64,000 bases of DNA, taken from IMG/VR virus record IMGVR_UViG_3300006155_000002. The stretch is one strand, 5' to 3'. How positions within the stretch are numbered: the first letter of the stretch is position 1; every line of letters starts with the position of its first letter. Origin of the DNA: a virus (taxonomy: Duplodnaviria > Caudoviricetes). The position numbers were made by a program, and so were the translations under genes. Shown here one piece after another: positions 345-1,260 of the stretch. The notes under the pieces were generated by a model. That model was not told the DNA's origin. It did no database searches and saw nothing but the letters and a program-made list of their open reading frames with translations.

Positions 345-1260
345 CTATGGGCAAGCCCATAATGAAGCCCCGGAACAAAAAGCCGCTCCGGGGCTTGATA
401 TAGGTTCGCACTCCCTTTGATGACTTCGGCCCCGCGCTCAAACCCATGGGGCGTAAAGACGCCCCGCGCCGCCCGTCGCGGTATTCCTCAAAGTCTGTGG
501 CGTTTCAACCACTCACCAGAAGGGAGAGAAAGTCACGTTATTTCATGCCATCAGACCCATTCCGGCAAACCATTCCGCCCGCTGTACTAACCCCCTTGGA
601 GCCTTCCGGCGACATGATGCCACGCAACGCACGATCCTCCTTGAGAATCGCAACGCCTGTAGGCATGGTCAAAATGCTGCTTTATAGCCTGCTTTCTTGA
701 ACCATCAAGCACATATCCGCCTGCGTGTTCCATACACTTCCGGTCGAAGCAGAATCCGACCCATTGCCGAGTGCTCAATACTACCCGCGTTCAGTACCCG
801 CGCACCAGGGGCCTAACTCCCCTGATTTTTGGCTGGCCTTCTCTTGGGACGGTTGGAGCCGTCACTTGTTGCAAGAGTACACTTCTTCTGATGGCAGAAG
901 TACCCCGCGAGTATGCCCTCGACGGTGGCGCTCGGAATGTTCCTCAAGGTTGTTAGCGCAAACAATGAGGAAGGAATTTTGATGGGTTGGTGAAACCCGG
1001 CTCCATAGTCAATTTCTTGACCTTTTTAACGTGGGCCACTTCCACGTCCTGCATCCCGCTAACGGAATGACCTGTGCCACTCAAGACACCAATTTTGAGC
1101 GTCCCCTGTGCGTAGGGGCTACGTCACCACGGAAGGGGTGGCGATCCCTCAAAACAAGCCCCGGCCTGCTGGCTGGAGCCTTGGAATAGGGCTTGATAGG
1201 CTCAAACTCTTTAGAAAGCCGTTGGTTTTGCTCTTGCTTTTGGGTGGTGCTGTGGGCTTC
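345..1260 (-). ncRNA. Candidate large structured ncRNA or long leader
   Basis: About 0.9 kb with no convincing ORF and more than 10 stem-loops; strand inferred from the flanking genes and the upstream motif at 1275-1299. Confidence 0.4.

Follow-up and report, generated by a model that had tools for sequence, protein, structure and literature searches.

A conserved structured RNA of about 600 nucleotides directly upstream of the gene for a 280-residue protein in a phage and its relatives

Introduction

RAGATH-4 is an orphan RNA motif that came out of a screen for RNAs lying near genes associated with twister and hammerhead ribozymes. On a larger scale, GOLLD and ROOL are ornate RNAs of phages and prophages that have been studied by cryo-electron microscopy (bioRxiv 10.1101/2024.12.08.627333), and the candidate RNAs of phages that have been catalogued so far are motifs of 29-151 nucleotides (nt; PMC10690425). 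Ribozyme-delimited messages are also known from phages, in whose operons hammerhead and twister ribozymes separate genes (Perreault et al. 2011, PMC3088659; Weinberg et al. 2017, PMC5737381). Here we analyse a 64,000-nt stretch of viral DNA (IMG/VR record IMGVR_UViG_3300006155_000002; Duplodnaviria, Caudoviricetes), hereafter the window, in which positions 322-936 encode on the minus strand a conserved structured RNA of approximately 600 nt, directly ahead of a gene for a 280-residue protein. A preliminary description of this DNA, made from the sequence alone, had proposed for the same gap a structured non-coding RNA of about 0.9 kilobases (kb), of uncertain strand and perhaps akin to GOLLD and ROOL, or else an antitermination leader.

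The RNA resembles GOLLD and ROOL in its size class (0.4-0.8 kb), its phage origin, its neighbourhood of transfer RNAs (tRNAs) and small RNAs and its lack of an assigned function. However, GOLLD and ROOL are free-standing genes, whereas the RNA described here is joined to the 5′ end of a single protein gene. The proposed kinship found no support in Rfam: neither GOLLD, ROOL nor the other large Rfam RNAs gave a match at an expectation value (E) ≤ 1 over window positions 1-3000, at E ≤ 0.05 over the whole window or at E ≤ 10 over 540-1000 and 925-1375, and the raiA and OLE models showed no similarity in the Rfam scans. As in ribozyme-delimited messages, relatives of the window carry twister-P1 ribozymes on both sides of the unit formed by RNA and gene, with more twisters between the neighbouring genes. 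The difference is that the object here is a large conserved RNA between ribozyme and gene, and that the copy in the window has no 5′ ribozyme.

Results

Related metagenomic and IMG/VR contigs were gathered by means of two proteins, the sigma-like protein encoded upstream of the gap and the full-length protein encoded downstream of it, and six further contigs came from a search with a 32-nt pattern derived solely from the RNA. The gene order is the same in all related contigs: an integrase gene, the sigma-like gene, a gap of 0.7-1.1 kb and the gene for the 280-residue protein. Within this gap the RNA is present in exactly one copy in every related locus with enough upstream sequence, on the strand of the gene and 320-700 nt before its ATG, and the linkage is the same for loci found through the proteins and for those found through the RNA pattern (6/6). 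Window positions 936-322 are approximately 80% identical to the closest lineages and align block by block to the remaining ones; positions 1265-937 gave no BLAST match in any related locus. Among deposited phages the gap has no DNA match, and the 280-residue protein likewise has none. A covariance model of the core junction of the RNA (R1, described below) found nothing in the cultured relative Enterocloster phage PMBT24, and the RNA pattern had no match in representative prokaryote genomes. Two contigs that matched an 18-mer pattern (L007 and L008) were discarded as chance.

Covariation among these homologues bears out the proposal of a large structured non-coding RNA or leader. The conserved unit is 322-936 on the minus strand, which reduces its size from the 0.9 kb first suggested to about 600 nt. 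An RNAalifold consensus of five close sequences contained 183 pairs, 36 of them compensatory. When 12 metagenomic relatives were compared over 944-543, the consensus comprised 79 pairs in 17 helices, and 53 of these pairs showed compensatory change. In the latter alignment 94.0% of cells are paired, compared with 38-46% when the partners are slid by 1-3 columns; the slid versions retain only 11-21 compensatory pairs, and none of 500 column shuffles reached any of the observed measures. Moreover, two relatives that were fetched later were held out, having no part in the derivation of the structure and being added by sequence alignment only. These retain 62/75 and 66/79 pairs (83-84%, as against 30-49% when slid), and at 21 and 24 pairs, respectively, both partners are different from those of the window.

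The pair counts also fix the strand, which had been left uncertain on account of wobble pairs pointing both ways. There are 174 G-U or U-G cells versus 9 A-C or C-A cells, and therefore the selected molecule is the transcript of the minus strand rather than duplex DNA or the plus strand. Compared with dinucleotide shuffles (20 for each strand), the gap as a whole (345-1320) folds better than expected, with z values of -5.5 for the minus strand and -3.0 for the plus strand; the corresponding values were -2.7 for 322-936 alone and -2.35 for 937-1265 alone. Substitutions relative to the window are spread evenly over the three phases (e.g. 41, 40, 38) and there are many indels of 1-2 nt, which excludes a conserved open reading frame (ORF) on either strand. 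Small conserved ORFs filling the gap were ruled out on these grounds. Long-range pairs at 905-893/423-412, predicted from the five close sequences, were dropped because they show no covariation and clash with supported local helices.

Read 5′ to 3′ on the minus strand, the RNA has a conserved core at 932-545 that is supported by the RNAalifold covariation, the slid and shuffled controls and the held-out sequences, and that is built of two domains. The 5′ domain (932-713) has two hairpins (900-885 and 877-841) together with a junction made up of six short helices. Helix 712-708/549-545 closes the middle domain (712-545), within which lie hairpins 657-626, 649-633, 625-612 and 602-590, two hairpins having invariant C-AAG-G loops. 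These loops gave rise to the idea of a sponge for a GGA-binding protein, which was rejected; a count by eye of about 14 GGA triplets in 615 nt is roughly that expected from composition. The core junction (837-709), from which model R1 was made, is formed by helices 833-831/785-783, 826-819/811-804, 802-799/789-786, 780-776/766-762, 761-756/747-742 and 737-734/728-725. R1 yields one match per related locus, always on the strand of the gene and down to 47% protein identity. On sequences outside its build it scored 127 bits (L038), 119.5 bits (L031), 78.9 bits (L034), 25.9 bits (L015) and 14 bits (L032).

The core is followed by a RAGATH-4-like 3′ domain (534-399), which is confined to the closest lineage of the window; other lineages have a different insert at this position or none. 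The RNA then ends in a terminal rod (409-350), in which an 11-base pair outer helix (409-399/360-350) surrounds a 12-base pair hairpin (396-365) with a loop of variable length. The rod is the most widely conserved element and is present in nearly all relatives. Across 14 sequences its hairpin is 97.6% paired with 6 compensatory pairs and its outer helix 91.6% paired with 2, values that none of 500 shuffles reached. A small hairpin, AUGGG-CUUG-CCCAU (359-344), overlaps the 3′ arm of the outer helix and thus the two cannot form together. Its sequence is invariant in 12 of the 14 relatives and shows no covariation, which speaks neither for nor against pairing. The ribosome-binding site of the gene, GAGAGGAG (343-335, minus strand), lies 10-25 nt past the last and most conserved element, with no terminator between RNA and gene.

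Upstream of the core, positions 1265-937 make up a 5′ part of the leader that is specific to the window and common to no relative. A search of 925-1375 returned no Rfam family for this part at E ≤ 10, except for chance-level rows. In relatives the same slot is occupied by extra repeat copies and, in most close ones, by a twister-P1 ribozyme. This division of the transcript also sorts the stems listed in the preliminary description, all of which are present in the sequence. Those at 365-374/387-396, 448-454/459-465, 806-811/819-824, 841-846/872-877 (with 848-852/859-863 inside) and 885-890/895-900 belong to conserved helices, most of them backed by compensatory changes, whereas those at 940-972, 1029-1047 and 1155-1195 fall in the window-specific part.

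Two orphan Rfam motifs resemble parts of this RNA. Positions 534-399 match model positions 1-131 of RAGATH-4 (RF03153) at 59.9 bits (E 1.2e-11), which is under the gathering score of 104.4, and the relatives score 73.3, 55.5, 43.7 and 42.1 bits (E 6e-15 to 2e-06), again all below the gathering score. The match keeps most helices of the model together with its conserved GAAA, AUAC-GC and GAGC-GC elements, and in relatives the setting beside twister ribozymes is the same. RNAalifold found 8 compensatory pairs in the 3′ part, several of them in helices of the model, although this count comes from only five sequences of four lineages. The difference from RAGATH-4 as described is that here it forms one dispensable domain, about a fifth of an RNA of some 600 nt, that is missing in sister lineages keeping the rest.

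The second motif, RAGATH-16 (RF03047), gave a 24-nt local match on hairpin 824-801 at 19.7 bits, short of its gathering score of 65.6. The same junction in one relative (L022) scored 30.5 bits against the full model, with E 3e-4 in a search of 211 nt and 0.085 in a search of 55 kb. The hairpin of the model with its GA-UUA-GC loop, followed by GGU-CG, corresponds to window 824-801, and L022 aligns all 72 model positions across the junction, including GCGUCG and the flanking hairpin. However, the match extends over about 70 of the approximately 390 conserved core positions and remains far under threshold. Judged by these alignments, the core junction is likely to be homologous to RAGATH-16. As a unit, the conserved core (about 390 nt) has no entry in Rfam 15.

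The gap itself spans 322-1371 (1,050 nt) between two minus-strand genes and was confirmed to be non-coding. Its ORFs are short and of chance length only, and no single stop-codon reassignment gives an open frame across it. It is also GC-rich (guanine and cytosine), at 0.53-0.56 compared with about 0.45 further into the window. On its upstream side lies the sigma-like gene (2154-1372, minus strand), which encodes 260 residues with a sigma-70 region 4 domain (Pfam PF08281, E 1e-08). The boundaries that had been proposed are all present, namely the ribosome-binding site, a terminator and a repeated motif. The terminator reads as that of the sigma-like gene, an inverted repeat at 1357-1324 (minus strand) with 15-nt arms that are 87% complementary, followed on the minus strand by a run of eight T at 1323-1316. 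The repeated motif is promoter-like (GGTGACATACAAACC..., 25 nt), and its copy at 1299-1275 on the minus strand points towards the RNA. A second copy lies at 2303-2279; the window holds two exact 24-mers where none is expected by chance. The third copy (40105-40119, plus strand) stands 25 nt ahead of the ribosome-binding site of a plus-strand gene, so that the orientation of the motif is that of transcription. We infer from this arrangement that the motif is a phage-specific promoter or operator, and that the transcript would start near 1265.

Relatives have a lineage-specific repeat ahead of the sigma-like gene and twice ahead of the RNA. The repeat differs from one phage lineage to the next, measures 25-55 nt, and is present ahead of the sigma-like gene and in one or two copies ahead of the RNA (window 1275-1299, 2279-2303 and 40105-40119; L001 5855, 6854 and 6935; L018 2150, 3168 and 3227). 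The repeats end in a TATAT-like element, and in the window one copy also precedes a late-region gene. They may be promoters recognised by a phage-specific factor, one that changes together with the lineage. A search for sequencing runs containing the region returned no RNA run and a single run that is probably of DNA, at a depth of about 3. One contig of this run joins 1299 back to 1244 at threefold local depth, and therefore the promoter-like repeat in that sample is either duplicated in tandem or collapsed from several copies.

The region of these repeats is also where many assemblies stop. About fifteen independent contigs have their 5′ ends 100-350 nt upstream of the RNA core, within direct repeats (L014, L016, L017, L021-L027, L029 and L031-L034), and two of them are 104-107 kb long, approximately a full genome. 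Assembly breaks at repeats of 47-55 nt are the simplest cause of these ends, the alternative being a true genome end. Two scaffolds contain runs of N in the repeat region upstream of the RNA (L018 at about 3270-3370 and L015 at about 3430-3530), showing that this spot is hard to assemble.

Downstream of the RNA, the gene for the 280-residue protein starts with the ATG at 321-319 and exits the left end of the window, so that ribosome-binding site and the first 107 codons are contained in 343-1 (minus strand). Its full-length homologue in L001 has 287 residues. There are 119 homologues at 47-100% identity, and a profile search recovered 614 clusters at 50% identity; the protein therefore belongs to a large family without assigned function. 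It has no Pfam or PHROG family. Residues 1-233 have a confident predicted structure (mean predicted local distance difference test score 77) for which Foldseek found no matching fold in the PDB, VIA-align returned only generic coiled-coil-like or helical-hairpin matches to residues 1-85, and the ESM Atlas gave nothing usable. In BFVD it is related solely to gut phage proteins that are themselves uncharacterised. Its C-terminal 55 residues form a disordered tail rich in lysine.

Ribozymes adjoin this unit in many relatives. At the 5′ end of the RNA, twister-P1 (RF03160) is found in L025, L027, L010, L018 and L011 with 49-65 bits, below the gathering score of 67.2, and a twister-like sequence is also present in L001, L024 and L029. 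No 5′ twister was found by the Rfam scans in the gap of the window, nor in L012, L017, L022 and L020. Where the downstream side was scanned, another twister directly follows the gene (L011, L012, L017, L018 and L027). The presence of twisters on both sides in many relatives suggests that leader and gene would be cut out as one unit there. In L011 (at about 3284-3338), L024 and L029 the twister before the RNA reads GUCACAAGCC where the consensus is GUCCCAAGCC. Such a twister might be inactive or a variant.

The early regions of the relatives (L011, L012, L015, L017, L018 and L022) contain up to five twister-P1 copies in 5.5 kb and several tRNAs. Nearly all of the twisters score just below the Rfam gathering score and are yet highly significant. 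Other ribozyme-related matches are a type II hammerhead (L015 2178-2244), RAGATH-36 (L015 8473-8625, 63.3 bits) and a weak match resembling the hepatitis delta virus (HDV) ribozyme (L017 5256-5328).

Elsewhere in the window, a gene at 5553-8318 encodes a YonO-like single-subunit RNA polymerase of 921 residues without a Pfam family. It is 38-41% identical to the YonO-like polymerases of Clostridium phage c-st and of Enterocloster phages (about 100 kb), one matching record being labelled RNA-dependent RNA polymerase. This similarity supports the assignment of the phage to the SPbeta-type phages of Clostridia. In the AT-rich stretch that separates the sigma-like gene from the integrase gene is an inverted repeat (2494-2567; two 23-nt arms, 91% complementary and 28 nt apart), a candidate attachment or operator site. 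Lastly, at 47087-48305 an RT-18 RNA (Rfam RF03021, 77.6 bits, above the gathering score) comes after a 755-residue gene without a Pfam family and directly before a 371-residue reverse transcriptase (RVT_1, E 2.5e-13), a locus that may be a diversity-generating retroelement or another reverse transcriptase system.

Discussion

We tentatively favour, with a probability of roughly 45%, the reading that this RNA acts in cis, as the structured 5′ leader of a discrete early message whose stability or translation it controls. Positions 936-322 of the minus strand would be the conserved, multi-domain 5′ leader of the first gene of a leftward early operon. Transcription would start just downstream of the phage-specific repeat at 1299-1275, pass through the lineage-specific segment of 330 nt and then the conserved RNA (5′ domain, middle domain, RAGATH-4-like insert and terminal rod), and run on without a terminator into the gene for the 280-residue protein. 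In most close relatives a twister would trim the 5′ side and another, where the downstream side was scanned, would cut just after the gene, such that leader and gene make up one discrete message. The leader would presumably act in cis on its own message. One possible role is to shield a 5′ end, left by a ribozyme or exposed in some other way, from 5′-to-3′ decay; a further one is that of a folded platform that sets translation, possibly bound by the lysine-rich-tailed product of its own gene.

The cis-acting leader is the best reading because the RNA has a fixed place before one gene, because no terminator intervenes, because the last helix lies beside the ribosome-binding site and because ribozymes delimit leader and gene together. 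In all relatives the RNA is on the strand of the gene and directly upstream of it, with no terminator between the two. Several points nonetheless weigh against this reading. The start, end and processing of the transcript are predictions from the DNA, and the ribosome-binding site is not visibly sequestered by conserved pairing; any ligand, protein partner or switch is hypothetical. The conserved unpaired nucleotides and the multi-domain build exceed the needs of a simple stabiliser and resemble those of RNAs with a function of their own. Moreover, since the window and four scanned lineages (L012, L017, L022 and L020) have no 5′ twister, the protection of a ribozyme-made end is not a general role.

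These features bring into play the main rival, a large ornate phage RNA with an independent function. It would act in trans or serve the 280-residue protein as an RNA partner, and would merely be co-transcribed with the gene. We consider this possible, though rather doubtful. It stays alive because of the many invariant unpaired positions of the core of about 390 nt, with its nested multi-helix junctions, and because the RNA is strictly co-inherited with a single protein family, even where protein identity falls to 47%; the partner would be a protein with a disordered lysine-rich tail and no known fold, and ribozymes flank the unit as they do around other phage RNAs. However, no lineage has a terminator or ribozyme between RNA and gene, the position of the last conserved helix just before the ribosome-binding site is that of a leader, the GOLLD, ROOL, raiA and OLE models are without similarity, and by eye there is no conserved self-complementary loop for self-assembly. 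A bolder form of this idea, which we regard as unlikely, is that RAGATH-16 and RAGATH-4 are fragments of one ornate RNA class of about 600 nt, present in no database as a unit and the dedicated partner of the protein family of 614 clusters. If true, it would constitute a new RNA-protein system of SPbeta-like gut phages and not a passive leader. An undescribed class of ribozyme, making up the whole RNA or a part of it, is a good deal harder to credit and seems to us very improbable. RAGATH motifs were originally gathered as ribozyme candidates, twister, hammerhead and HDV-like ribozymes abound nearby, and the RNA has both highly conserved unpaired nucleotides and a RAGATH-4-like domain without assigned function; but the sequence shows no sign of a cleavage site, that domain is dispensable in several lineages, and no known self-cleaving family matches the RNA.

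A processive antitermination leader of the put or nut kind, modifying the polymerase for read-through of the long early operon, has to be weighed as well. The RNA stands at the start of this leftward operon, immediately behind the terminator and the promoter-like repeat, and in relatives the operon is rich in stable structures, namely ribozymes and tRNAs. Known put RNAs, those of phage HK022, are about 70 nt long and must stay tethered to the polymerase via the nascent chain. The predicted twisters of the relatives would cut this chain right after the first gene, severing the RNA from the elongating polymerase, and no similarity to any Rfam antitermination family was found. The suggestion of an antitermination leader in the preliminary description thus fits poorly, and we think it improbable. 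Least probable of all is an element acting at the level of DNA (an origin of replication, for example, or a site of packaging or the end of the genome), for which the contigs ending upstream of the core within direct repeats might be taken as a sign. The excess of G-U over A-C cells is evidence of selection on one strand in single-stranded form, the exact repeats of 47-55 nt in which the contigs end break short-word assemblies (Logan k = 31, SPAdes), and MEGAHIT k141 contigs read through them.

As regards novelty, the finding is a large orphan structured phage RNA with an embedded RAGATH-4-like domain and, probably, a RAGATH-16-like junction. The catalogues of short candidate structured RNAs of phages (PMC10690425, PMC8040213) may already list sub-motifs or pieces of it.

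Conclusions

Large RNAs of bacteria and phages that are supported by covariation and lack a known function are few, and each has opened new biology. The function of the present one is directly testable, owing to its fixed protein neighbour, its defined strand and boundaries, and the natural variants with and without flanking ribozymes. Our comparison suggests that RAGATH-4 and RAGATH-16, both orphan Rfam motifs, belong to a single larger RNA. Moreover, this RNA gives a concrete setting in which to ask why self-cleaving ribozymes are concentrated in the early regions of gut phage genomes.
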